Assembly: GCA_963748815.1 (NCBI GenBank)
Contig: CAVVKJ010000015.1
Location: 1-20,367, forward strand
Direction of reading: 5' to 3'
Origin: an uncultured Gemmatimonadales bacterium
GTDB lineage: Bacteria; Gemmatimonadota; Gemmatimonadetes; Gemmatimonadales; GWC2-71-9
DNA: 20,367 nucleotides
In this document: positions 2,966 to 20,367 of the stretch, piece after piece
Layout of the letters: every line of letters begins with the position of its first letter
How positions within the stretch are numbered: the stretch's first letter is position 1
Made by a program: the position numbers and the translations under genes
The notes under the pieces: generated by a model
Databases searched by the model: none
Seen by the model: the letters and a program-made list of their open reading frames with translations, nothing else
Told to the model about the DNA's origin: nothing

Positions 2966-3358
2966 CTACTTCCCTCTCTTCTTTACCGGCGCCTTCTTCC
3001 TGGCAGGCGCTTTCCGCTTCGCGGCCTTCTTCACCGCTTTCTTCTTCGCGGGCGCCTTCTTCCTGGCGGCCTTCTTCGCCGCCTTCTTCTTTGCCGGTGC
3101 CTTCTTCTTGGCGGCCTTCTTCACCGTGTTCTTCTTCACCGTCTTCTTCTTTGCCGGTGCCTTTTTCTTGGCGGGCGCCTTCTTCTTTGCCGGCTTCTTA
3201 GCGGCCTTCTTCTTCGCCGCGGCGGGCTTTCTCGCCGGCGGTGCAGGAGGCGCCGGCGGTGGCGGTGGGGGTGGCGGAGGAGTCGGCACCTTTTGGGGTG
3301 ACATCGGCATGGGGTCCATCCATCCCGCCCCGGACCAGCCCATCTCCAGATCGCTCAT
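2966..3358 (-). CDS. Histone H1-like Lys/Ala-rich DNA-binding protein
   Basis: GGAGG RBS upstream of ATG 3358. Poly-Pro linker followed by many PAKKK/AAKKK repeats. Confidence 0.8.
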   Translation of the reverse strand: MSDLEMGWSGAGWMDPMPMSPQKVPTPPPPPPPPPAPPAPPARKPAAAKKKAAKKPAKKKAPAKKKAPAKKKTVKKNTVKKAAKKKAPAKKKAAKKAARKKAPAKKKAVKKAAKRKAPARKKAPVKKRGK

Positions 3359-7651: not shown

Positions 7652-7718
7652 CGTCACCCCCGCGAACGCGGGGGTCCAGTGAACAGACATCTGGATTCCC
7701 GCTTGCGCGGGAATGACG
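7652..7718. repeat. Inverted pair of CGTC-tagged REP-like palindromes
   Basis: CGTCACCCCCGCGAACGCGGGGGTCCAG (7652-7679) and inverted CTGGATTCCCGCTTGCGCGGGAATGACG (7691-7718) between convergent genes. Confidence 0.85.
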
Positions 7719-7740
7719 AGCTTGGCACCGTCGGTCCCGC

Positions 7741-7796
7741 TGCCCCGCTGCCCCGCTGCCCCGCTGCCCCGCTGCCCCGCTGCCCCGCTGCCCCGC
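7741..7796. repeat. Perfect 8-bp tandem repeat (TGCCCCGC x7)
   Basis: Seven exact copies, ending 3 nt from the CBS gene stop. Confidence 0.95.
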
Positions 7797-7799
7797 TTC

Positions 7800-8234
7800 C
7801 TACCTCACATCAAACATGTAGCTGTTGAGGTACTGGATGGTGGCGGCGTGCTCCGCCACCTGGAAGGCCAGCAGGTCGCCGCTGGTCACGAGCCCCACCA
7901 ATCCCCGCGCGTCGGTGACCGGCAGGTGCCGGATGCGCTTCTTGCTCAGGATGGCGCCGCACTCGTCAATGCTGGTTTCGGGCAGGCAGGTGATGACAGG
8001 CGAGGTCATCACCTCGCGCACCTTCGTTTCCGCCGGACTCCGCCCCGCCGCCACCACCCGCCGCAGGATATCTCGTTCCGTGAAGACGCCCAGCAGGGTG
8101 CCGTCTTCCAGCACGACGAGCCCGCCGATGGTGTGATGGTTCATCACCTGGGCGGCGGCGAGGACGGTGTCGGACGGGGCGATGGAGATGACGTCGCCGC
8201 TCTTGCGAGCAAGCAGGTCGCGGACGGTGGGCAT
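7800..8234 (-). CDS. CBS domain pair protein
   Basis: GVFTERDILRRV, VREVMTSPVIT, IRHLPV, GLVTSGDLL. AGGAG RBS. Confidence 0.93.
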   Translation of the reverse strand: MPTVRDLLARKSGDVISIAPSDTVLAAAQVMNHHTIGGLVVLEDGTLLGVFTERDILRRVVAAGRSPAETKVREVMTSPVITCLPETSIDECGAILSKKRIRHLPVTDARGLVGLVTSGDLLAFQVAEHAATIQYLNSYMFDVR

Positions 8235-8905: not shown

Positions 8906-8932
8906 GTAGGGGTGGGCTCACGCCCACCCCTA
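8906..8932. repeat. GTAG-tagged REP-like palindrome
   Basis: GTAGGGGTGGGC-TCAC-GCCCACCCCTA. Related copies at 10420, 10516 and 13428. Confidence 0.75.
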
Positions 8933-9019: not shown

Positions 9020-10114
9020 CTATTCAACGCCCCGGCCTTGCTGCCCCGCCGCGGGTCGCCGATAGCGCAGGAAGATCATCCCCTCCGGGCGGACCGCCTT
9101 GACCAGCACGGCGTCGGGGCTCGAGGCCAGCGCGTAGCCGTAGCCGTTGAACGAGATCGACTCGACCAGACGCCCCTGCCGGTCGATCACCTGGTAGCGG
9201 CGCACGGTGTCAGGGATGACGCGGCTCTTCTCCAGCCAGACGTTGCCGTCGCCGCCGGTGAAGGCCTCGTCGAAGGGCGGCTTTACGGGGCTGAAGGGGA
9301 CTTTTTCGGCGGCCGACCGGAGGTCCGGGGGGAACTTCCGCAGGAAGGCTTCGCGGTCGGAGACGGTGATGGTGAAGACCCGGTCCGGGAGCTTCTGTCC
9401 CTTCTGAAGCTCGCCGTCCGGTCCGATCCAGTCGACCCGGTTGGGGTAGACCCGCGCCACCCAGACGCTCCCGTCGGCCAGGACGCCCCACGCATCCTCC
9501 CCGCTGAAGACCCGGCGCTCATACCGGCGGCCGGCGTCGCCATCGACTTCGGCCAGGTCCAGCGGAGAGAGCCGGAAGAGGGTGTCGCCCCGCGAGAAGT
9601 CGAGCGGGAAGCGGACCACCACGGCCGAGTCCCGCTTGCCGCTCCCGTCGGGGCCGGGGGGCGGATTGAACTGCACGTACCAGTTGCCCTGTCCATCGCG
9701 GGCCCGGGGGAGATTGCCCAGGGTGATCTCCGGGCTCCCGATGGCCGTGACGTATGTCCCCTCCAGGGTCCACGTCGTCAGCCGGCGGAGCGCCCAGTCG
9801 CCCACGTAGAAGCCGTCACCCGCCCGGAAGAGGGAGAAAGGCCCCTCGAAGAGGGACTTCATTCCCTTGCCAAGATCACGCCCTGAACCCTCGGCAAAAT
9901 CGAGGACCACCACCCGCCGATCGGCGGGGGAGAGGACGGCCCACCGGTCGCCGCCCAGCCATGTGCCGGCCGTGGCCTCGAAGAGCGTCGTAGGTATAGA
10001 GTCGGCCTCGGGCCCGAGGGCGATGTCCGGGGCGTCGGCGGCCTTGGTGCCGCAGGCGGCAGCCAGGAGGAGGGCGCCGAGAAGGGCCGGCCGGGCGAGG
10101 GGGAAGGGGCGCAT
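9020..10114 (-). CDS. Beta-propeller lipoprotein (array member 1)
   Basis: Lipobox LAAAC. Shares EDAWGV..DG...VAR and KP.F motifs with 10623..11816. Confidence 0.8.
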   Translation of the reverse strand: MRPFPLARPALLGALLLAAACGTKAADAPDIALGPEADSIPTTLFEATAGTWLGGDRWAVLSPADRRVVVLDFAEGSGRDLGKGMKSLFEGPFSLFRAGDGFYVGDWALRRLTTWTLEGTYVTAIGSPEITLGNLPRARDGQGNWYVQFNPPPGPDGSGKRDSAVVVRFPLDFSRGDTLFRLSPLDLAEVDGDAGRRYERRVFSGEDAWGVLADGSVWVARVYPNRVDWIGPDGELQKGQKLPDRVFTITVSDREAFLRKFPPDLRSAAEKVPFSPVKPPFDEAFTGGDGNVWLEKSRVIPDTVRRYQVIDRQGRLVESISFNGYGYALASSPDAVLVKAVRPEGMIFLRYRRPAAGQQGRGVE

Positions 10115-10120
10115 TCTGGG

Positions 10121-10126
10121 AATCTA
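10121..10126 (-). promoter_or_regulatory. -10 element of a probable leaderless transcript
   Basis: Minus strand TAGATT, 6 nt, then ATG 10114. No RBS. Confidence 0.5.
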
Positions 10127-10214
10127 TAGAGTCAACCGCCGCTCCGCCTTCCTGGCCTGCAACCCTTTGCGCCGTGAGGGCATCAAAGGAAGTACATACA
10201 GAAAGGAGGCCCCG

Positions 10215-10406
10215 ATGGTCATGCTCGCCACAGATTCCCCGATCCCCACCTTCCGACTGGTGGATGACAACGGGACCTCCGTTGGTCGCATCGTGCTTCC
10301 GGTCGAGGACCGGATCAACGGCTCGGGCGCCGCGACGATCTATCTCCAGCGGGAGTCGCCAATCCGTCGGCGCCGGGTGACGGATACCCGGCTGGCAGCG
10401 CAATAG
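10215..10406 (+). CDS. 63-aa protein resembling the C-terminal blade segment of the neighbouring propellers
   Basis: AAGGAGG RBS at 10203-10209. FRLVDDNGTSVGRIVLPVEDRINGSGAATIYLQR aligns without gaps to the C-terminus of 10623..11816. Confidence 0.7.
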   Translation: MVMLATDSPIPTFRLVDDNGTSVGRIVLPVEDRINGSGAATIYLQRESPIRRRRVTDTRLAAQ

Positions 10407-10419
10407 CAGCATCCCCCCC

Positions 10420-10540
10420 GGGGTGGGCGCATGCCCACCCCTGGCGCAACCAGACGCGACTTCGTTGCATCAGGCTGGACGCCGCTCCCACCCACACGAA
10501 ATTGCGTTCCTGTCGATAGGGGTGGCCATACGGCCACCCC
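10420..10540. repeat. Pair of GTAG-family REP-like palindromes
   Basis: GGGGTGGGC-GCAT-GCCCACCCC (10420-10441) and ATAGGGGTGGCC-ATAC-GGCCACCCC (10516-10540). Confidence 0.7.
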
Positions 10541-10622
10541 GGCCTTCAGGCCCCCGGCTCTTGCGACTCCCCCCGCTCCTCGTGCATCCTCCCCTCCAGA
10601 ACCCACCCAACCCGAGGTCCTT

Positions 10623-11816
10623 GTGTCGCGACGCCCGTCCCTGCGCCTCATCCTTTTCCTGCTTGCCATCTCCGCCGTCTCTTCAGCCGTCAGCCTGGCT
10701 GCCCAGCAGGGCAAGGCCCCGGTCCAGAAGCTGACCAAACCTGACGCCACCTTCGACGAGCCGTTCACCCAGGTGGCCGGGCTCCGGGAGCTGAAAAACG
10801 GCGACGTCATCGTGGCCGACATGCGGGACCGGACCCTGCAGAAGATCGACCTGAAGACCGGTGCGGCCACGGCGCTGTCGCGCGAGGGGAGCGGCCCGAC
10901 CGAGTATCTCTTCCCCACCGGTGTCTACGCGCTGCCCGGTGACAGCACCGGCATTTACGACATGGGCAACCAGCGCTACCTCCTGCTGGACCCCACCGGC
11001 AAGGCGGTGAGCACCTTCAGGATGGACGAAGGGAACAGCGGTGGCGGGATGATGATGCTCCGCGCGGCAAGCGGGGCCGATGACAAGGGCCGCCTCTACT
11101 ACTCCACCCGAGGCGAACAGCGTGGGGGTGGAATGGATGGGGGCCCCCCGGAGTTTTCCGATTCTGGCCGCGTCGTGCGCTATGACCGGAGCAGCAAGAA
11201 GTTCGACACCCTCGGCGTCGTGATGGTGCCGAAGCCACTGGTTGAGGCGAGCGGGAGTGCCAACAACCGGTCGGTCAGCATCCGTCGGGTACCGATGGCA
11301 CCGGAGGATGCCTGGGGCGTGGCGCCGGATGGGCGCATCGGGGTGGCCCGCATCGCCACCGACGAGGTGCAGTGGTGGCTCCCCAATGGCAAGCGTGTGA
11401 CGGGGCCACCGGTTCCCTTCACACCGATCAAGGTCGTCGAGGCCGACAAGCTGGCCTGGCAGGCGCTGCAGGCGCGCAGCGGCATCAATGTCAACAACAA
11501 CAACGGCCAGATTACCGTCAGCCCGGCGGCGAGCAAGCCGGAGCCAATCGACCCGTCGATCCAGTGGCCGGCCACCAAGCCGGCGTTTCCGGCGAACGCG
11601 GTCCGCGTCGCCCCGACCGGGGAACTCTGGGAACTCCGCTCCACCCCCGCGAACGACCCTCTCCCACTCTACTACGTCTTCGATTCCTCCGGCAACCTGA
11701 TCAAGCAGGTACGGCTCCCGGCCCAGACTCGGCTCGTCGCGTTCGGAAAGGGCGTGGTGTACCTTGTCCGGCGGGATGCGGATGATCTGGAATATCTCGA
11801 GAGGTACAAGCTGTAA
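10623..11816 (+). CDS. Exported beta-propeller protein (array member 2; SPase I-type signal, no lipobox)
   Basis: GTG 10623 after GAGGT gives signal peptide MSRRPSLRLILFLLAISAVSSAVSLAA-QQ. SREGSGPTEY motif. C-terminal YVFDSSG..I..V.LP...VYLVRRDADD. Confidence 0.82.
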   Translation: MSRRPSLRLILFLLAISAVSSAVSLAAQQGKAPVQKLTKPDATFDEPFTQVAGLRELKNGDVIVADMRDRTLQKIDLKTGAATALSREGSGPTEYLFPTGVYALPGDSTGIYDMGNQRYLLLDPTGKAVSTFRMDEGNSGGGMMMLRAASGADDKGRLYYSTRGEQRGGGMDGGPPEFSDSGRVVRYDRSSKKFDTLGVVMVPKPLVEASGSANNRSVSIRRVPMAPEDAWGVAPDGRIGVARIATDEVQWWLPNGKRVTGPPVPFTPIKVVEADKLAWQALQARSGINVNNNNGQITVSPAASKPEPIDPSIQWPATKPAFPANAVRVAPTGELWELRSTPANDPLPLYYVFDSSGNLIKQVRLPAQTRLVAFGKGVVYLVRRDADDLEYLERYKL

Positions 11817-11827
11817 GTCGCGTTGAT

Positions 11828-11855
11828 CGTCACCCCGGCGAAGGCCGGGGTCCAG
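11828..11855. repeat. CGTC-tagged REP-like palindrome
   Basis: CGTCACCCCGGCGAAGGCCGGGGTCCAG, same family as 7652. Confidence 0.85.
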
Positions 11856-11886
11856 TTGTTGTCGTTCTTCACGCCTTTCGCGTTTC

Positions 11887-11931
11887 CTTTGCGTCTTTGC
11901 GGTAAGAGCTTTTGACCGCAAAGGCGCAAAG
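11887..11931. repeat. 17-bp inverted repeat built of CGCAAAG subunits
   Basis: CTTTGCGTCTTTGCGGT - 11 nt - ACCGCAAAGGCGCAAAG, one G-T mismatch, with degenerate subunits continuing on both flanks. Confidence 0.8.
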
Positions 11932-11987
11932 AGACGCCAAGGGCTCAACGTGACGCCCTGCTCCCCAATTTCTGAAACGAGACGACG

Positions 11988-13220
11988 ATGCGACAATTGG
12001 CGTGGGGACTCGCGTTGTTCGCTTTGGTGGGTTGCGGGGAGAAGGGCCCCAAGCTGGACGCGCCGGTGGTGACCACGCTCCCGAACGGCGCGGTCGAGGT
12101 CAGGAACAGCGGGCCGAGCGGGTGGGCGGACACCAGTGGCTGGAGGCTGGTCGAGCTTTACCGGGTCGGTGGTGTGGACGCCGAGGGGCTCGGGGCGGAG
12201 GAACTGGTCGATCCGCAGAGCGTGGCGATCGATGCCAGGGGCGGGATCTATGTAGCCGACGAGAAGCCCGCGGTCATCAAGCAGTTCGGCCCCGATGGCG
12301 GTTACATCCGGAGTTTCGGGCGGGAAGGGGGCGGCCCCGGCGAGTTCCAGGTGGCGTTCATCGCCGCGGCGCCGGGGGCGCTCGCGCTGCACGATCCCCG
12401 GTCGAGCCGGACGAGCGTGTTCGATTCGGCCGGCAATTTTCTCAAGAGCTGGCCGTCGAGCTGCTGCTACTGGTCGAACATCATGGTCAGCCGCGACACC
12501 CTGATCTACGTGCCGACCTCCGTGCGGTCGGAAGGGCCGAGCGAGCCGAATGACAACTATTACATCCGCTACCGGCTTGACGGGACGCTGGTCGACACGC
12601 TGAAGATCGCGGGGCCCGCTCGTGCCGATGAAGACAAGTACTGGACGGTTTCCGGGGGGGAGGGGCGCAACAAGATGATGTTCATGACGTCCATCCCCTT
12701 CGCGCCGGAGGTGCGGACTCCGCTCGATCCTGCGGGCGGCGCCATCGTCGCCTGGACGGGGGAGTACCGATTCTGGGCGACCTCGAACGGCCGAGACACG
12801 ACCCAGGTTGTTTCGCTCGCAGCGACGCAGTCGACCCTGAGTGAGGATCGTCGTCTGCATATCCGCGACTCGATGGTCGGCCTGTACGCAAAGCAATTCG
12901 ACAAGAAGGCGGTCGAGGAGGCGTTCAAGGTCTCCGACATCCCGACGGTGGCGCCATATTTCCGTTCGCTCCAGGTCGACGGTCGCCGCAACCGGTGGGT
13001 GCTTCCGGACGACGGCGGAAATCACGCCAACGCGCGCTTTGAGGTGTTCGACTCGACCGGGGCCTATCTGGGCGCGGTGCCGCTGCCGGAGACGTTCGGC
13101 ACGTTCTGGCAGACGGTGTGGGGAGTCGATCGCGTGGCGACGATCGCGGAAGATGCGGATGGGTTGCCGGTGGTGGTGGTGTATGGGATTGAGAAGCGAG
13201 GACAGAGGACAGAGGACTGA
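11988..13220 (+). CDS. 6-bladed beta-propeller (NHL-like) lipoprotein (array member 3)
   Basis: Lipobox LVGC. PQSVAIDARGGIYVAD, FGREGGGPGEF, FEVFDSTGAYLGAVPLP. Confidence 0.88.
   Translation: MRQLAWGLALFALVGCGEKGPKLDAPVVTTLPNGAVEVRNSGPSGWADTSGWRLVELYRVGGVDAEGLGAEELVDPQSVAIDARGGIYVADEKPAVIKQFGPDGGYIRSFGREGGGPGEFQVAFIAAAPGALALHDPRSSRTSVFDSAGNFLKSWPSSCCYWSNIMVSRDTLIYVPTSVRSEGPSEPNDNYYIRYRLDGTLVDTLKIAGPARADEDKYWTVSGGEGRNKMMFMTSIPFAPEVRTPLDPAGGAIVAWTGEYRFWATSNGRDTTQVVSLAATQSTLSEDRRLHIRDSMVGLYAKQFDKKAVEEAFKVSDIPTVAPYFRSLQVDGRRNRWVLPDDGGNHANARFEVFDSTGAYLGAVPLPETFGTFWQTVWGVDRVATIAEDADGLPVVVVYGIEKRGQRTED
13198..13218. repeat. 7-bp tandem repeat GAGGAC(A/T) x3 overlapping the gene end
   Basis: GAGGACA GAGGACA GAGGACT, encoding the terminal RGQRTED. 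Confidence 0.75.
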
Positions 13221-13236
13221 GGGCGATCCCACCATC

Positions 13237-13371
13237 CGTCACCCCGGCCCCCGGCTTTCGCCTGAGCAGGGTCGCCGGGGTCCAGCGTTTGAGCTCGCGG
13301 CTGAAGCCGCGGCTCGGCTGGTGTCGCTAAAGCGACGGGGAGGCAGTCACCCCGGCGAAAGCCGGGGTCCA
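13237..13371. repeat. Two direct CGTC-family REP copies with small hairpins between them
   Basis: CGTCACCCCGGC-(long loop)-GCCGGGGTCCAG at 13237-13285 and GTCACCCCGGCGAAAGCCGGGGTCCA at 13346-13371. Hairpins CGCGGCT-GA-AGCCGCG and GTCGCT-AA-AGCGAC lie between. Confidence 0.8.
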
Positions 13372-13427
13372 TGTTCCGGGCTCTTACGCCGATTCGTCAC
13401 ATTCCGCGTTCGACCGGACGCACCGAG

Positions 13428-13452
13428 GGGGTGGGCATACGCCCACCCCTAT
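13428..13452. repeat. GTAG-family REP-like palindrome
   Basis: GGGGTGGGC-ATAC-GCCCACCCCTAT. Confidence 0.7.
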
Positions 13453-13473
13453 CCGGGAGCGTCCAAGCCGTCC

Positions 13474-13517
13474 CCCCTCTCCCGGAGGGAGAGGGGGATA
13501 AGGGGGTGAGGGGTTAC
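13474..13517 (-). repeat. BoxC-like palindromic repeat, copy A
   Basis: CCCCTCTCCC-GGA-GGGAGAGGGG followed by GATAAGGGGGTGAGGGGTTAC. Confidence 0.9.
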
Positions 13518-13573
13518 GACGGCGGGGCAGGGTGGCGGGGGGCAGGAGTTCGCGGCATTGCGAGGAACCCCAG

Positions 13574-14791
13574 CTACTGAAGCTCCTCCAGCACCGGCAA
13601 CCGCCCCACCACCAGCGCCCCATCCTCATCTTCGGCGATTCCGTACACCCACCGCACACTCCACGCCTTCGGGGTGAAGTTGCTGGGCAGGTGGACGGTC
13701 GCGAGCCGGCGGCCGTCGGTGCCGAAGACATCCCAACGGTAGGTGGCCGGCCTCGCCTCGGCGACCCTTCCCATGACGAAGGGATGGTACTTGTAGGTGG
13801 AGTCCACGACGCGCATCCACAGCCGCCCTCCCGCGTCGAACTGAAGCTCCTCGACCTGATTGCGAGTGTCTCCGTAGTCTTGACCCTCCACGAGGTCGAT
13901 CAAGGGCGGGAAGGGCCCAGAAGGGAATTCACCCTGCCACTTCTCTGGAATGGTCTTGGCATCGGCAGTTACCGGTACCGCCGCTTCGTCAACGGTAATG
14001 ATGGACATCGCACCATTTGAGGCGTTTCGAATCTGAGCAGCAAACGTCACCCCATCCGACGTTGCTACCTGACAGCCGCCATCGCTTGCGACCAGCGCCC
14101 GGACTCCATAGGGACGGCGCGTACCCGATGGCTGTGTCGCCGTCCAGGCGACATCCTCAACCAGGAGCCACGGTACCGGTTTTGTGTTGGGTCGCCACCA
14201 GACGATCGCGACGGTGTCGGGGGGCCCGCCGGGTAAGCGGTACCCGGCCCTCCAGAGCGCGAGTATGTTGCCGTCGCACGAAGCCAGACTCGACGCCATG
14301 GCTTCGTCGTACCCGGTCGGCGCCTCAAGTGTGGTGGTGATGGGGACATGATCAGGCCCAAAACGGGTCAGCCGTGACGCGTTGAAATCCAGAGCTTCGA
14401 CGGTGTCCCCTCGTGCGTGCACACCCAGAATGCGACGAAATTCCCCCGGCCCATCACCCTTCCGGCCGAGAGTTTCTACTTCGCCAGGTGCACCGATTTC
14501 CACGATTTGAGTGCGTTCCCCGATGAGCAACTTGTCACCTGCCGTCGCCACCGCCGTTGATCGCAGGACTCCCTCCCCGGCATAAACGACCTCCAGCGAC
14601 TCGCTCGGGATGGTGCCGAGGTCTCCGAGGACGGAGCCGGATTGGGTGTGGACGAAGGTGGTGTCGCCGGAGGTGGTGATCGAGCCCTGCCAGGTATCGG
14701 AGGTCCCGTTGCCTGCGGAATCGCGACACCCGACGACCAGGCACAGGACCAAGACAGCACATGCGGCAGGCCGACCCCTACGAGAAATCAA
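13574..14791 (-). CDS. 6-bladed beta-propeller lipoprotein (array member 4)
   Basis: TTG 14791 after GGAGG gives signal MISRRGRPAACAVLVLCLVVGC. LGRKGDGPGEFR and WDVFGTDGRRLATVHLP motifs. Confidence 0.8.
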   Translation of the reverse strand: MISRRGRPAACAVLVLCLVVGCRDSAGNGTSDTWQGSITTSGDTTFVHTQSGSVLGDLGTIPSESLEVVYAGEGVLRSTAVATAGDKLLIGERTQIVEIGAPGEVETLGRKGDGPGEFRRILGVHARGDTVEALDFNASRLTRFGPDHVPITTTLEAPTGYDEAMASSLASCDGNILALWRAGYRLPGGPPDTVAIVWWRPNTKPVPWLLVEDVAWTATQPSGTRRPYGVRALVASDGGCQVATSDGVTFAAQIRNASNGAMSIITVDEAAVPVTADAKTIPEKWQGEFPSGPFPPLIDLVEGQDYGDTRNQVEELQFDAGGRLWMRVVDSTYKYHPFVMGRVAEARPATYRWDVFGTDGRRLATVHLPSNFTPKAWSVRWVYGIAEDEDGALVVGRLPVLEELQ

Positions 14792-14816
14792 AGTTGCCTC
14801 CGGATGTCCGCATGGA

Positions 14817-15938
14817 TCAGTTCCCTGGCGAGTCAACTGATCGTGTCTCGAACGTCCTCCACTCACACCTCTCCACATCGATCAGCATCCGTCTGACCCA
14901 CGTCTCCCCAGTGCCATCTGCGCCGATCCGCAGATCGATGCGCACCAGCGTGTCGCCGCGCACCGAGAGTTTTGGCGATCCCTCGGGGTCTTCCCCCAGC
15001 GGTGTGTCCACGCACGCTTCACCGGTGTGAAAGTCCAGAACGGAGAGCCAGCTGGTCGAATGCTCAGTTTGGCCGCTCAACACAAAATCGCTGTGAATCA
15101 CGGCCAAGCGCTCTGCGCCCATCGGGAAAAGCCCGCTCAGGAGCGAGGCCATGCCGATGATTGTCGAGTCACTCATTGGTTTGCTGAATCGCTGGATGAT
15201 GTCCGTAGGCACCGGGCGGCGAGCTACCCACGGCATCGTCACCGCCAGCGTCTCGGCGCCGGAGGTTCTTACGTAGAGCTCGTTGGATGCCATGACGCCT
15301 GTCACAAGCTTGTCGGGGATCGATGCCACGAAGAAATAGGGAAAAAATGTCCGCACACCCGGGGAGTCACGATACGGCGCGGGCAGCGTGCCTCGGCGGA
15401 TTGCCGAGTCCACGCCGGGTAGCAACACCACCTGGCTGGTGTAGTTGACCGGGTCGAACAGCGCGCCCACGAGGGTGTCGCCGTCCCAGGCGATGCTGTA
15501 CGCGAGGCCTCCGACCGGGGCGGAGCGTGTTAGCGCACCGCTGGAGAGATCAAAGAAGTTGACCCGCTGAAGTTGCCAGTCCACCGCCGCGAGCAGGGTA
15601 TCACGGAGCACTGCCATTGCGCCTGGAACCGCGAACTCTCCGGGGCCCCTGCCCTTCCGGCCGATTCGACGACGGAGCGCTCCCGATCGCTCGAACTCAC
15701 TGATTTGTGCGGATGCGAGGTCGGCCACGAGAAGGCCTCCATCCGCAGTCACCTGGATGGCAAGGATGTGGCTGAGGGGAGCCGAGTCGGGCTCCTCCAG
15801 CTTGACCGAATCGAGCAGCGTGACGACTGGGCTGGGGCTGGTCGGGGCCCCCAATTGGCGATCAGTACCGCAGCCGGCGAGCAGCAGGCACACCAGCAAG
15901 CAGGGTCCGAGGACCGGATATCGTCTCATGGTCATCAT
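14817..15938 (-). CDS. 6-bladed beta-propeller lipoprotein (array member 5)
   Basis: Lipobox LAGC. IGRKGRGPGEF. C-terminal ACVD...CEW. Start uncertain (candidates from 15929 to 15947). Confidence 0.82.
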   Translation of the reverse strand: MMTMRRYPVLGPCLLVCLLLAGCGTDRQLGAPTSPSPVVTLLDSVKLEEPDSAPLSHILAIQVTADGGLLVADLASAQISEFERSGALRRRIGRKGRGPGEFAVPGAMAVLRDTLLAAVDWQLQRVNFFDLSSGALTRSAPVGGLAYSIAWDGDTLVGALFDPVNYTSQVVLLPGVDSAIRRGTLPAPYRDSPGVRTFFPYFFVASIPDKLVTGVMASNELYVRTSGAETLAVTMPWVARRPVPTDIIQRFSKPMSDSTIIGMASLLSGLFPMGAERLAVIHSDFVLSGQTEHSTSWLSVLDFHTGEACVDTPLGEDPEGSPKLSVRGDTLVRIDLRIGADGTGETWVRRMLIDVERCEWRTFETRSVDSPGN

Positions 15939-16050
15939 AGTCTGCACCGCGGGATGGGGGGTGCGCTAGAGGGGATATTTGATCGACGAGCGGGTGGTAC
16001 CCCGCCTTGCGTTCAACCCGTCACCCCCGGTCCCCGCTCCCTCCACGCAT

Positions 16051-16094
16051 CTAACCCCTCACCCCCCGGCCCCCTCTCCCTCCGGGAGAGGGGG
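16051..16094 (+). repeat. BoxC-like palindromic repeat, copy B (overlaps the DUF559 3' end)
   Basis: CTAACCCCTCACCCCCCGGCCCCCTCTCCC-TCC-GGGAGAGGGG, inverted relative to copies A, C and D. A degenerate partial copy lies at about 16014-16042. Confidence 0.88.
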
Positions 16095-16470
16095 TGGTGA
16101 AGGGTTGGAGGAGGCTGCGAAATCGTTCGACGTTCACCTCCGCATTCGGGATTCGAAGCACCCGAACACCCAAGGACTCGATCTGCGCGTCGCGTTGGAG
16201 GTCGCGAATTGGATGCCCGTCCTCTTGATGGATGGGGCCATCCAACTCGATTGCCAGGCGCAATTGCGCACAATAGAAGTCCACGATGAATGGTCCTACG
16301 ATTTGCTGACGTCGAAATCGCAGCCCCAACATCCTTCTGCCACGAAGGAGTTCCCATGCCTGCCGCTCGGCAGCGGTTCCCTCACGCCGGAGTCGCCGTG
16401 CCTGATCGAGCAGGAGCGGATTCTGGTGTTGACGGGCGATGACACCCCTGCCTGTCGGAACTCTGGGCAC
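16051..16470 (-). CDS. DUF559 family (Vsr-like PD-(D/E)XK) endonuclease domain protein
   Basis: GTG 16470 after GGAGG. ARRLRREGTAAERQAWELLR, FRRQQIVGPFIVDFYC, LAIELDGPIH, RDLQRD..IESLGVRVLRIPN. Confidence 0.92.
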   Translation of the reverse strand: MPRVPTGRGVIARQHQNPLLLDQARRLRREGTAAERQAWELLRGRRMLGLRFRRQQIVGPFIVDFYCAQLRLAIELDGPIHQEDGHPIRDLQRDAQIESLGVRVLRIPNAEVNVERFRSLLQPFTTPSPGGRGGRGVRG

Positions 16471-16573
16471 ACTCGCCTCCCCCGAAATCTGCCCAAGGTG
16501 GCTATCAATGCGCGGAATGGTGATACCATTCCCCCGCAAGTCAGCACGAGCAATTGCGTTGGCGCTCACCTCT

Positions 16574-16754
16574 CCCCTCTCCCGGAGGGAGAGGGGGGTA
16601 AGGGGGGTGAGGGGTTACGACAGCGGGGCCGCGGGGCAGGGGGCGAAACGGACACCGGTCCCCCCCTTCCCGAAGGGGAAGATTCCGGTAGAATGCTGGA
16701 ATGATCCGGCTCACCCCCTGCTTGGTTGTGGGATTGTTGCTGCTCGGCGCCTGC
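16574..16754 (+). repeat. ~181-bp direct repeat, copy 1: BoxC-like copy C (16574-16618) + promoter + signal-peptide codons
   Basis: Hand alignment to 17827-18006 gives about 15 differences. Confidence 0.93.
16689..16694 (+). promoter_or_regulatory. -10 element of a probable leaderless transcript
   Basis: TAGAAT-GCTGGA-ATG. TTCCCG 16 nt upstream is a weak -35 candidate. Confidence 0.6.
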
Positions 16755-17810
16755 GCCGACGAGCCCCACCAGCCTATTGCGACGGATGGCGCCACGGCCA
16801 CCGGTTCGCTCCAGATCAGTGCGACACCCATTCAGATCCTCGCCCCATCCGACAGTGATGGAGTTCCCCTGTTCGGCAACATTGCCGACGCGACACGCCT
16901 GACATCAGGAATCGTCGTGGTGGTCGATCGGCGCATCGATGCCGTCACGCTCATTGATCCGAGAGGCCAACTCGTTAGTCAAGTTGGACGGAACGGGGAG
17001 GGTCCGGGCGAGTTCCGCTCGCTCGGCGGGATTGGCCAGTGTGCCCCTGACACCTTGTTCGTCTGGGACCGGATGAACGACCGGATGAACATCCTGGGTC
17101 CCGATGGTGCCTTTGTGAACTCCTACCGCCCACCGGGCGATCTGGTGGACCGGTACTGTGCGGGTGCTACCCGGTTCCTGGTATGGACGCGATTCCTGAA
17201 TTTTGGAACCCCGACTGCAGAGTCACCACCGATCCGCGGTATCGCTGTGCTTGTCTCCGCTTGGGGTGATTCAGTGGGTGGGCTGGGAGAAATCCAGGCG
17301 GGCGAGGTGTGGCCGTTGGGTGCGGTCACCCAATTTGCCGTCACCGAGGCTGGGGTCTATTTGGGAACTGCCGACACCGCGGTCGTGTCCCTATACGATA
17401 CGACCGGTCAGAGACTGCGATCGATTGCCGTGGGGGATGCGCACCGGGCGGCCTCGGAGGTGGACTATGACGCGGCCATCACGAGTTTGACCAGTACCGT
17501 ACCGGGTACCGCCGAGGAAGTTGCCAGCATGAAGCAGTTCATGCGCAAGCGCTTTCCGATGCCCACATTCCTGCCGGCGTATCGCGCGATCTTCACCAAT
17601 GGTCGCGGGGGCCTGTTTGTGGTTACCTCACCGCTCGGAGCTGACGCCACCACGATTCGGGTGTTCGATGGTGCCGGCGCTTCGCTCGGCGACATTCTCA
17701 TTCCCGGGGACTTGGAAATATTTGAAATCGGCAGCGACTATCTGCTGGGGATGACGCAAGATGCGGAGGGAGAACAGCAACTGGTGGTGTACTCGCTGAC
17801 GGTTGATTGA
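16701..17810 (+). CDS. 6-bladed beta-propeller lipoprotein (array member 6)
   Basis: Lipobox LGAC. VGRNGEGPGEFR. IRVFDGAGASLGDILIP...IGSDYLLG..QDAEGEQ. Confidence 0.87.
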   Translation: MIRLTPCLVVGLLLLGACADEPHQPIATDGATATGSLQISATPIQILAPSDSDGVPLFGNIADATRLTSGIVVVVDRRIDAVTLIDPRGQLVSQVGRNGEGPGEFRSLGGIGQCAPDTLFVWDRMNDRMNILGPDGAFVNSYRPPGDLVDRYCAGATRFLVWTRFLNFGTPTAESPPIRGIAVLVSAWGDSVGGLGEIQAGEVWPLGAVTQFAVTEAGVYLGTADTAVVSLYDTTGQRLRSIAVGDAHRAASEVDYDAAITSLTSTVPGTAEEVASMKQFMRKRFPMPTFLPAYRAIFTNGRGGLFVVTSPLGADATTIRVFDGAGASLGDILIPGDLEIFEIGSDYLLGMTQDAEGEQQLVVYSLTVD

Positions 17811-17826
17811 CCCCTCACTCTACCCC

Positions 17827-18006
17827 CCCCTCTCCCGGAGGGAGAGGGGGATAAGGGGGTGAGGGGTTACAACAGCGGGGCCGCGGGGCAGGGGGCGAAA
17901 CGGACACCGGTCCCCCCCTTCCCGAACGGGAAGGTTTTCTTAGTATGCTGGAATGACCAGACTCACCCCCTGCTTGGCTGTGGGATTGATGCTGCTCGGC
18001 GCCTGC
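17827..18006 (+). repeat. ~180-bp direct repeat, copy 2: BoxC-like copy D (17827-17870) + promoter + signal-peptide codons
   Basis: Matches 16574-16754 up to the lipobox Cys codon. Confidence 0.93.
17941..17946 (+). promoter_or_regulatory. -10 element of a probable leaderless transcript
   Basis: TAGTAT-GCTGGA-ATG, same position as in copy 1. Confidence 0.6.
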
Positions 18007-19080
18007 ACCGGCAGTGAGCCTGCCGCCGCCTTCAAGTCCCTCGACGTCTCGTCCTCCACCGCCCCTTCCTTCGACCACGCAGAAGTACACCCGATTGCAC
18101 TGAAGGCCGAGCCCTTTGTGGAGTCAGGCCTCTCGAATCCGTCAGCCATTGCCGTGGTGGGCCCGTATGTTGTCGTCGCCGACCAGACCAAATCCGACAG
18201 CATGGTGAAGGTGTATCGGGCTGCCGATGGGTCGCTCGCGTTTGCGACCGGTCGGGATGGGGAGGGGCCCGGGGAGTATCGAACCATCTGGGGGCTGCAA
18301 GCGGTGCCCTGGGGCACCGAGTCGAACCCCACCGTATCGGTCTTTGATGTTCGGCTCCGCCGCCTCACCGCGGAAGACCTGAGTCCTGCCGGCCAGGAAC
18401 TTGAGCCGGCGGAGCGGCCGATCGTGACCCTCCGGCCCGAGGCGACCCCGACTCAGGCGCTCTGGGAAACCGACAGCACCATTCTCGCGCTGGGGTTCTT
18501 CCGAGCGGGCCGGCTCGGCGTGTTCAACAATGCGGGCGAGCAAGTCGGTGTGGTGGGTCCCCTTCCCGTGGACGACCCGACCATTCCCGCTCCCGTCCTC
18601 CAGCACGCCTACCAGAGCTTCCTCGGCCGGAAGCCGGATGGTTCCCTGCTGGTGGTGGCGAACCGCCACGCCGGGCGACTCGAGATCCTCCGCCCCGATG
18701 GGGAGCGTACGACGGTCGTTCGCGGGCCGTACTACTTCGAGCCGCGATTCACCGTGGATCAGGCAAGCGACAGTGCCAGGACGCCGATATTTGCTGGTGG
18801 CAATCACCTGAGGTTCGGATACCAATCCGTTGCGGCCACGGACGCCGAGATATTCGCGCTCTTCTCAGGTCGGGTCCGGAAGGACTTCAGCGGTGAGGCG
18901 ATCTACGGGCGGTTCGTTCACGTCTTTGACTGGTCGGGGAACTTCCTGCGCGCGTACGACTTGGGCCAGGCAGTCTTCCAGATCGACATCGACCCGTCGG
19001 GGCAACGGCTCTATGCGCTGGTGCATGAGCCGGAGGTGGGAGTGGTTGTGTTTAATCTGGATCCCGAGGAAGCCAACTGA
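17953..19080 (+). CDS. TolB-like 6-blade propeller lipoprotein, BF3164-like (array member 7)
   Basis: Lipobox LGAC. GRDGEGPGEYR. C-terminal GY.SVAATD.EIFALFSG and VHVFDWSGNFLRAYDL...IDID...RLYAL. The BF3164 label is from recall. Confidence 0.82.
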   Translation: MTRLTPCLAVGLMLLGACTGSEPAAAFKSLDVSSSTAPSFDHAEVHPIALKAEPFVESGLSNPSAIAVVGPYVVVADQTKSDSMVKVYRAADGSLAFATGRDGEGPGEYRTIWGLQAVPWGTESNPTVSVFDVRLRRLTAEDLSPAGQELEPAERPIVTLRPEATPTQALWETDSTILALGFFRAGRLGVFNNAGEQVGVVGPLPVDDPTIPAPVLQHAYQSFLGRKPDGSLLVVANRHAGRLEILRPDGERTTVVRGPYYFEPRFTVDQASDSARTPIFAGGNHLRFGYQSVAATDAEIFALFSGRVRKDFSGEAIYGRFVHVFDWSGNFLRAYDLGQAVFQIDIDPSGQRLYALVHEPEVGVVVFNLDPEEAN

Positions 19081-19085
19081 CGACA

Positions 19086-20189
19086 TCAATGCTGCGTCGG
19101 CTGCCACTCGCAGGTGGTATCATCCACGACGTACCCCAGAAGTGTCGAGGTCAGGTGATCAGCTGAGTCGGCTCGTTGATCCAGGACAAAGACGGTGTCG
19201 TCCCTGAAGGCCGCAACCACCGGGGCATCGCCCGTGGAAGGGATGCTGGCGTCGACGCACGCGGTCTTGAGGTCGCGTGAGAGAATCGTGACATAGAGCG
19301 TCGCCGAGATCACGCGGCCATCGATCGTGGCATCACGATGCGCAGCCAGCACCCTTCCGCCGGGAAGCCGATGCAGCGCATAGAACTCGGACAGTACTCC
19401 GAACATCTCCGGCGGGGAGAGCTGGCTTTCAGGTCCAAACAGTCCTTTCACATCCGGTGGGATACCTCGGCGATTCCGCTTCGGCACGACCACCGTATCC
19501 CGCAGGCGGCCGAGGCTGTCGAGTATCAAAATCCTGTCGGTCCCCGCGAAGGCGACGAGGAGCGTGTCGACCCATGCCGTGACTGCGACGCCATTGTAGA
19601 TGCCTGCGAGCGGGCCACCGAACTCATACTCCTGGGGAACGGAAACCAGGTACGCGATGGTGCTGTCGCCCTCGACGTATCGCGCGATCCCGGTCCGACG
19701 CTCCATGTTCAGGTCGCCGAGCCAGATGCCTCCAGCGTCGTCCTGACCATGATAGGTGATCCCGTTGTACGAGACGGCCGAGAGTAGCGTGTCGCTCGCT
19801 TGATCGAAGAACGAGAGTCGTCGGAGCCCGTTGTCGGCGATCGCAACCCGCCCATCGCCCAACGGTAGAATCATCCCCACGGCGCGGAATTCACCGGGGC
19901 CGCTGCCCTTTCGGCCGACCACAGCCACCGGCGCTCCCTGCCTGTTGTACCGCACCACCCGTTCGTGGTAGCCGTCGGCAACCCAGAAATCGCCGGCGTC
20001 CGAGAACGCCATGACCCGTGGGCTGGCGAGGTAGAGTGACTCCGGCTCCTGGAGTGCGACCTGGGTGACGAGCCGTACGTCAGGGCCGCGACCGGCGGCT
20101 GGCAGAGGGGTATCCAGGCGAGTGCATGCGAGGCCCAGTAGGCACACGCCGCCGACCGCCCAGGTACTCGCGCGCAGCCTGTAGCCCAT
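19086..20189 (-). CDS. 6-bladed beta-propeller lipoprotein (array member 8)
   Basis: ATG 20189 after GAGGAG. Lipobox GLAC. VGRKGSGPGEFR. C-terminal ACVD...CEW. Confidence 0.85.
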   Translation of the reverse strand: MGYRLRASTWAVGGVCLLGLACTRLDTPLPAAGRGPDVRLVTQVALQEPESLYLASPRVMAFSDAGDFWVADGYHERVVRYNRQGAPVAVVGRKGSGPGEFRAVGMILPLGDGRVAIADNGLRRLSFFDQASDTLLSAVSYNGITYHGQDDAGGIWLGDLNMERRTGIARYVEGDSTIAYLVSVPQEYEFGGPLAGIYNGVAVTAWVDTLLVAFAGTDRILILDSLGRLRDTVVVPKRNRRGIPPDVKGLFGPESQLSPPEMFGVLSEFYALHRLPGGRVLAAHRDATIDGRVISATLYVTILSRDLKTACVDASIPSTGDAPVVAAFRDDTVFVLDQRADSADHLTSTLLGYVVDDTTCEWQPTQH

Positions 20190-20367
20190 CTCTCTCCTCT
20201 CTAGACACATCGATGGATTCTGCGGTGGGGCCAGCGTGGAGGACGACGAGATGTTGGCGTCGCTCCAGCGACACCAGCCGAGCCGCGGGTCTACCCGCGA
20301 GTCATAAGGGCCACGATAGCGTGTCCTGGGCCCTTCGGCCAGAGGGCTTGCGCCATCTCCCCCCCCC

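Follow-up and report, generated by a model that had tools for sequence, protein, structure and literature searches.

In the genome of an uncultured Gemmatimonadales bacterium, a small DUF559 gene and the two inverted repeats that frame it form one discrete unit of 565 bp with sharp ends, as shown by alignment with its relatives. 'Triplex motif' describes the repeat better than 'REP' does, and the best reading of the analysis as a whole is that protein and repeat would be a cognate pair working like the Ssn/NTS system, but with a different fold and a triplex target. The unit lies in a stretch of 20,367 nucleotides (here called the window) on contig C15 of assembly G000 (GCA_963748815.1). The window is a near-duplicate haplotype of C5:166455-184317 (98.9%), and contig C16 of the same assembly is a third haplotype. 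The features are listed in Table 1.

Table 1. The DUF559 gene and the repeat copies of the window, with the basis of each assignment.
Feature	Position	Strand	Basis or detail
DUF559 (Vsr/EDxHD-fold) putative nuclease gene	16051..16470	-	PF04480 match; start from alignment and GGAGG at 16476-16480; structure model, fold search
Repeat copy 3' of the DUF559 gene, left end of the cassette	16051..16094	-	hairpin 16070-16094; third tract 16056-16064
Repeat copy 5' of the DUF559 gene, inverted, right end of the cassette	16572..16617	+	hairpin 16572-16598; third tract 16605-16613
Degenerate half copy outside the left repeat	16014..16045	-	tail and pyrimidine arm, without partner arm; from sequence
Solo copy, GGA-loop subtype	13472..13515	+	direct repeat of the 16572 copy; repeat family search
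Solo copy, same subtype as the 16572 copy	17825..17868	+	part of the 165-bp duplication 16594-16758 / 17846-18010; haplotype C5 departs from the window here

The original prediction placed an inverted repeat pair at 16051-16094 and 16574-16618, and a repeat search of the window recovers it at 16052-16094 and 16574-16617. Both copies framing the gene have a perfect 11-12 bp hairpin and a third tract directed outward from the gene. The longest DUF559 open reading frame (16051-16569, minus strand) does pass through the downstream copy, as had been noticed (…PSPGGRGGRGVRG): its last ~14 codons lie in the copy at 16051-16094, and the stop codon (16051-16053) is the outer edge of that copy. The more likely start is the GTG at 16470, giving a protein of 139 aa, since GGAGG stands 5 nt upstream and TTG occupies the equivalent position in three relatives. 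The idea that the repeat-encoded C-terminal peptide is significant was dropped because many homologues stop ahead of the repeat. Locus L125 has tandem half copies on the same side of the gene as the half copy of the window, and downstream of its gene five tandem truncated repeat copies lengthen the reading frame with GGRGGRG-like units. The repeat is not restricted to the gene, two further copies being present in the window (at 13472 and 17825). The folding energy of the hairpin by itself is modestly unusual (z -1.8 to -2.1), an Rfam search of the window returned no match, and scans of 15900-16800 found no promoter and one terminator-like match at chance level.

The product of the frame 16051-16569 matches PF04480 with an E-value of 7e-29 (100.3 bits, gathering cut-off 20.6) and falls below the cut-off of the NCBIfam PRK09767 equivalog (64 vs 218). 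In a Foldseek search, a model built from a 39-sequence alignment (mean pLDDT 87) matches 3HRL (TMq 0.65), the catalytic domain of I-Bth0305I (3R3P, 0.63) and Vsr (1CW0, 0.61), which bears out the Vsr-like nuclease fold of the original prediction. Residues E24/D53/D66/H70/D79 (core numbering, counted from 16437) align with E170/D196/N208/H213/D222 of I-Bth0305I, the His being one position off; the latter are the catalytic residues named in the available text of PMC3239194. Each of the five is conserved in 31-32 of 32 homologues picked by Pfam. On model and alignment the protein is a putative nuclease of Vsr/EDxHD fold with an intact catalytic set. The dN/dS ratios of four unsaturated pairs are 0.18, 0.29, 0.22 and 0.14 (three other pairs are saturated at synonymous sites), and the active site is shown by these comparisons to be under purifying selection. 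PMC3424549 places DUF559 with Vsr and gives no substrate in its available text. A HUH motif with a catalytic tyrosine, or a DDE triad, is absent from the alignment and fold of the window protein, and neither the Pfam nor the fold search finds in it a GIY-YIG domain (cd10448). Elsewhere in the assembly GIY-YIG has a single match, in a 612-aa frame.

Each repeat copy has three tracts: a C-rich and a G-rich one pair as a hairpin, and another G-rich one comes after them. All four copies of the window fit the BoxC/TMECO tracts CCCTCNCCC / GGGNGAGGG / GGGNGAGGG with a first loop of 3-6 nt; the resemblance to E. coli BoxC, to which the original prediction pointed, extends to equality of the tracts with those of TMECO (BoxC and TMECO being the same). 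The assembly, with C15 and C16 left out, holds 48 non-redundant copies, 46 of which have the third tract. By their loops they fall into four main subtypes, A (9 copies), B (8), C (14) and D (13), with 4 others. Their second loop measures 4-9 nt, vs exactly 3 in TMECO; the TMECO pattern therefore gives no strict match in G000 and 16 once the second loop is relaxed, and the repeat is TM-like, not TMECO proper. A reversed version of the repeat pattern, searched as a control, has no match in any of 151 genomes (151/151). Stem sequences differ around homologous genes, and the third tract changes with them as a mirror image would: of 93 asymmetric stems, 68 favour the mirror and 3 the direct copy (22 ties), and of 32 stem types 24 vs 3. 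Such mirroring is the geometry of a class II purine-motif intrastrand triplex, a fold that is predicted here from sequence; according to the available text of Holder et al. 2015 (PMC4666352), a stable triplex could not be shown in vivo. GTAG- or CGTC-type tags are absent from the flanks of the 45 copies listed.

The sharp ends of the unit are seen in several alignments. The stretch homologous to locus L192 (86%) runs precisely from 16051 to 16615 of the window and does not extend into the flanks. In relatives homology sets in at 16051-16053, and four clade-A cassettes at three different sites can be aligned only from one tail to the other. The second DUF559 gene of the assembly (paralogue B, C5:150973-151335), whose product is 49% identical to the window protein, lies in an insert of 0.83 kb (C5 about 150624-151451) with third tracts at both ends, between convergent stop codons. 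This cassette is found at its C5 junction in none of 16 sister genomes: 12 of the 16 are empty of gene and repeat, one has ~4 kb of other DNA and three are uninformative. The search for empty sites that the original prediction proposed succeeds for paralogue B, and fails for the cassette of the window, which has no clean empty site in the sister genomes and haplotypes because its neighbours turn over too fast. In haplotype C16, one solo copy stands at the junction of the window cassette, but the adjacent genes differ too. Among contigs from four DNA runs, none spans the stretch, one joins 16051 to another flank and two join the homologue of 14817-15947 to 13419; all of these are a hint only, given their short sides and a minimum likeness of 88. 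The DUF559 gene is patchily present (5 of 16 sister genomes), and solo repeats are gained or lost between sister genomes at shared intergenic gaps among the matches listed. Decayed DUF559 sequence is absent between close repeat pairs in 8 stretches (gene-less or other sites).

Terminal inverted repeats, sharp ends and an empty site (clean for paralogue B only) are what would be expected of an autonomous, IS-like transposon, in which a tiny transposase would itself excise and insert the unit together with non-autonomous doublets. Facing doublets without a gene, 44-56 bp apart, do occur in G000, and pairs of type A and B repeats occur in E. coli. We nevertheless consider such a transposon very improbable: apart from 0-2 ambiguous bases, target duplication is absent at the paralogue B insert, no genome was found to carry near-identical copies at more than one site (no identical pair within a genome, the C5 and C15 cassettes being haplotypes of one site and the two A copies of genome G003 being divergent), and the hydrolytic Vsr-type fold has neither HUH/Tyr nor DDE chemistry.

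The neighbourhood of the unit is variable. Positions 9020-20210 hold a run of about eight signal-peptide proteins of 360-460 aa, two of which have 6-bladed beta-propeller Pfam matches; haplotypes C5, C15 and C16 and the sister genomes differ in the genes they have here, and two breakpoints lie on the repeats. A direct duplication of 165 bp (90%; 16594-16758 / 17846-18010) covers the repeat tail, leader and signal-peptide start of two adjoining propeller-like genes. On C5 the haplotype of the propeller-like gene 14817-15947 (C5 181274-182399) is frameshifted (293 vs 376 aa), which may be an assembly error. CGTC-type palindromes (NTS/SRM-like) stand at 7652, 11828 and 13345, and a third palindrome family (GGGGTGGGC…GCCCACCCC) at 8909, 10420 and 13428, as well as at L004:1426-1860. 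This third family also flanks the only Y1 transposase gene of G000 (C5:409955). At 7728-7807 the 8-mer CCCGCTGC is repeated in tandem, about nine units, and short tandem runs similar to this array are found at many gene ends in sister genomes. A 130-aa Pro/Lys/Ala-rich open reading frame with KKAPAKKK repeats (2966-3358, minus strand) is by its composition presumably histone H1-like.

Association of gene and repeat was examined in the best 80 of 137 loci, from many phyla, retrieved with a query that contained the repeat-encoded tail. Because the generic triplex motif finder used overlooks subtypes that have mismatches or long spacers, the fractions from these loci are lower bounds. In this best-80 set, the motif occurs 128 times in the 76 kb lying no more than 500 bp from the gene and 25 times in the 542 kb farther out; at least one side of the gene has a motif at 47 of 71 loci, vs 34 of 2174 control windows, and both sides have one at 24 of 71, vs none of 2174. 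Because of the tail in the query and the selection of 80 from 137, a separate set was picked by Pfam alone (35 standalone genes examined, 32 with enough flank), in which 26 of 32 genes are bracketed. The repeat, whose enrichment at DUF559 loci the original prediction proposed to test, is strongly enriched beside these genes in both sets. A hairpin accompanies none of seven weak or fused DUF559 matches. Bracketing spans many phyla; the subtype changes in both flanks at once, and the flanking copies match dispersed ones. A Deinococcus DUF559 gene is bracketed by TM-like repeats, a Synechocystis gene has one upstream, and the N. gonorrhoeae locus that matches 3HRL over the aligned stretch is flanked on each side by TM-like copies, which are directly oriented. 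The layout is tails-out in 37 loci, tails-in in 27 and uncalled in 50, with 11 changes on the tree (raw counts without a shuffle control). On a Synechocystis plasmid (L202:34-1679), a repeat-DUF559 unit stands between a DUF1156 gene and a hypothetical gene, and apparently splits a methyltransferase-like locus.

Among 150 relatives, the gene (E <1e-20) is present in 21 of 48 genomes with the repeat and in 2 of 102 without it. That repeat-bearing genomes usually lack DUF559 had been named as an outcome that would count against the pairing; the 29 relatives with at least five repeats divide into 14 without the gene, on the side of that outcome, and 15 with it. Five of the 14 were rechecked with the protein, including ones that are 95-98% complete.

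Many repeat-rich genomes without the gene would also be expected if the gene were a passenger, the repeats being recombination hot spots that captured a small nuclease gene long ago and the protein never contacting them. TM sites are reported to be unstable, and two haplotype breakpoints lie on A-type copies (C15/C16 at 16574, C15/C5 at 17867) and swap other genes too. Mere capture would have to account for the facing pairs of G000 (among its 48 copies, those enclosing >60 bp within 3 kb contain only the two DUF559 genes), for bracketing across so many phyla with concerted changes of subtype, and for the weak and fused homologues that have no repeat. We hold it to be quite unlikely.

Protein and repeat subtype vary together, as the original prediction proposed to check. 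A quick tree was made from 107 columns of 114 cores, with 54 of 111 forks open; L097 and L100, which duplicate L006 and L007, were excluded. It contains clade A (4 genes, support 99), all with a GGA/TCC loop, and clades C (2 genes, support 98) and D (2 genes, support 94), each with a loop of its own. Genome G003 holds clades A and C and genome G016 clades C and D, and the loops stay clade-specific in both. Protein distance is correlated with repeat similarity in 37 loci of the window's own lineage (rho -0.66, p 0.0005) and over all 102 loci (rho -0.35); for cross-phylum pairs outside this lineage, shuffled within phylum, the correlation is not significant (rho -0.18, p 0.07). The p-values overstate the significance because the genomes are related, and linkage alone can produce co-variation of gene and flank. 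In G000, a distance of 20 kb around gene A takes in 4 of the 7 remaining A copies, and the same distance around gene B takes in 2 of the 4 remaining B copies, a local excess of the cognate subtype with a label-permutation p of 2.5e-4, for a distance chosen after seeing the data. No cognate gene for subtypes C and D, the two commonest in G000 (27 of 48 copies), is present in this 86%-complete assembly. Within the genus, high subtype counts do not require the gene (21 A copies in G014, which has no gene; 26 C in G013; 16 D in G008).

In E. coli, ycjD is annotated as DUF559, in keeping with the original prediction. K-12 ycjD ends in a degenerate repeat copy and is followed by a full TMECO 168 bp downstream; none lies upstream of the gene, the repeats being on its 3' side only. 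The gene is present, at one fixed site, in 3378 of 5426 E. coli genomes. In a strain without it an efflux operon occupies the ycjD site, where such an operon is also reported in the available text of PMC12817139. TMECO counts, obtained from 10 of 13 strains and confounded by phylogroup, are 23, 24, 23 and 8 in strains with ycjD and 12, 11, 3, 4, 17 and 1 in strains without it, with overlapping ranges. A diverged E. coli ycjD (L119:1360-1707), annotated as a pseudogene, has an in-frame 3' repeat longer than that of K-12.

The fixed site in E. coli would suit a domesticated host nuclease, which would recognise the repeat and cut incoming or exposed ssDNA; the repeats would then spread by other means and the cassette by ordinary recombination. 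The same could be said of the 1-3 DUF559 copies per genome, which are divergent from each other, of the purifying selection, and of the few matches in phage records (2 in 50,697) and plasmid records (26 in 72,556, several of them chromosome-sized), and SsnA, which modulates transformation according to the available text of PMC11893778, offers a precedent. We judge domestication unlikely, if worth keeping in view: patchy presence, sites that differ from one paralogue to the next and a clean insertion into an empty junction look like movement, and the cognate subtype is in local excess near each gene. The 'minimal selfish element' of the original prediction survives as a discrete unit with sharp ends and one empty site. 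Its selfish character is weakened by the low number and divergence of the copies, their rarity on phages and plasmids and the 14 of 29 gene-less repeat-rich relatives, and the absence of a target duplication was counted against a simple selfish element.

We therefore return to the cognate pair, for which the following course of events, put together from sequence and analogy, seems to us slightly better than an even bet. The G-rich strand of the repeat would fold into the predicted triplex. The DUF559 protein, as a structure-specific nuclease, would likely bind the folded strand, a step suggested by the Ssn/NTS analogy and by co-variation, and would likely nick beside it, as the Vsr/I-Bth0305I fold suggests. 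Host recombination repair of the nicks would copy solo repeats, and rarely the whole 565-bp cassette, into intergenic gaps. A 110-aa hydrolytic domain of the PD-(D/E)XK type is not known to carry out strand transfer by itself, and for this reason spreading is assigned to host repair. A bolder version, possible but doubtful in our eyes, would make DUF559/YcjD a large family of triplex-specific nucleases, each tuned to a subtype, and the gene with its triplex ends a 0.5-kb mobile element that seeds BoxC with a preference for its own vicinity, the first class of mobile element with ends read as three-stranded DNA and a Vsr-like enzyme.

Neither a function nor a partner enzyme has been assigned to the BoxC/TM repeats, known since the 1990s (PMC4666352, available text). 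DUF559, for its part, is a widespread family that lacks a substrate, and the pairing makes the two questions jointly testable. The system is accessible in the laboratory through E. coli K-12, with ycjD and 23 TMECO copies, and through the solved structure 3HRL, which comes from a repeat-flanked locus. If the pairing is true, bacteria would have an enzyme able to recognise triplex DNA, the nucleases and their targets would form pairs of differing specificity, much as in Ssn, and the instability reported at BoxC/TM repeats would have a cause. Our search of literature outside subscription journals found no publication linking DUF559 or ycjD to BoxC/TM; the TMECO-flanking genes in the supplement of Holder et al. 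may include ycjD. The main text of the 2026 Minerva preprint has no mention of DUF559, Vsr, triplex or BoxC.

Four known systems invite comparison. In Ssn/NTS (SRM; Chenal et al. 2025, PMC11893778, available text), a dispersed polar hairpin repeat flanks the gene of a small single-domain nuclease, each Ssn homologue has its own repeat variant, and the layout is likened to IS/REP-transposase units. The DUF559 gene, too, has flanking polar hairpin repeats of its own, and these differ from one homologue to the next. Ssn, however, is a GIY-YIG protein with CGTC-type hairpins and shown cleavage of ssDNA, whereas a Vsr/EDxHD putative nuclease and a three-tract triplex motif are found here, and the available text of that paper mentions neither DUF559 nor Vsr. 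The label of the original prediction, a non-RAYT nuclease-REP unit, holds as regards RAYT, given the absence of HUH/Tyr and the different flanks of the Y1 gene; it does not name a new category, because Ssn/NTS is published, and the repeat is of the triplex kind. The possibility that the single Y1 transposase of G000 serves this repeat was rejected, its gene having other flanking repeats.

With BoxC/PIT/TMECO (PMC4666352, available text) the repeat shares three 9-nt tracts (C-rich, G-rich, G-rich), intergenic location, facing doublets, patchiness between strains and unstable surroundings, and differs in its second loop (4-9 nt here, 3 in TMECO); the main text of that paper, as available, names no partner enzyme and mentions neither 'endonuclease' nor 'ycjD'. 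Like REPIN-RAYT systems, or REPtrons (10.1101/2021.07.10.451892 and PMC3733652, available texts), the unit has a low-copy chromosomal gene flanked by its own repeats and gene-less inverted doublets, and repeat families that outlive the gene in some genomes. Unlike them, it has no HUH/tyrosine chemistry and no GTAG or CGTC end tag, and RAYTs stay put, whereas the DUF559 cassette lies at different sites in sister genomes (and at a fixed site within E. coli). With Vsr and the EDxHD homing endonuclease I-Bth0305I (PMC3239194, available text), the predicted protein shares fold and catalytic residues, but it has no NUMOD DNA-binding domain, no intron or intein host and no adjacent cytosine methyltransferase gene.
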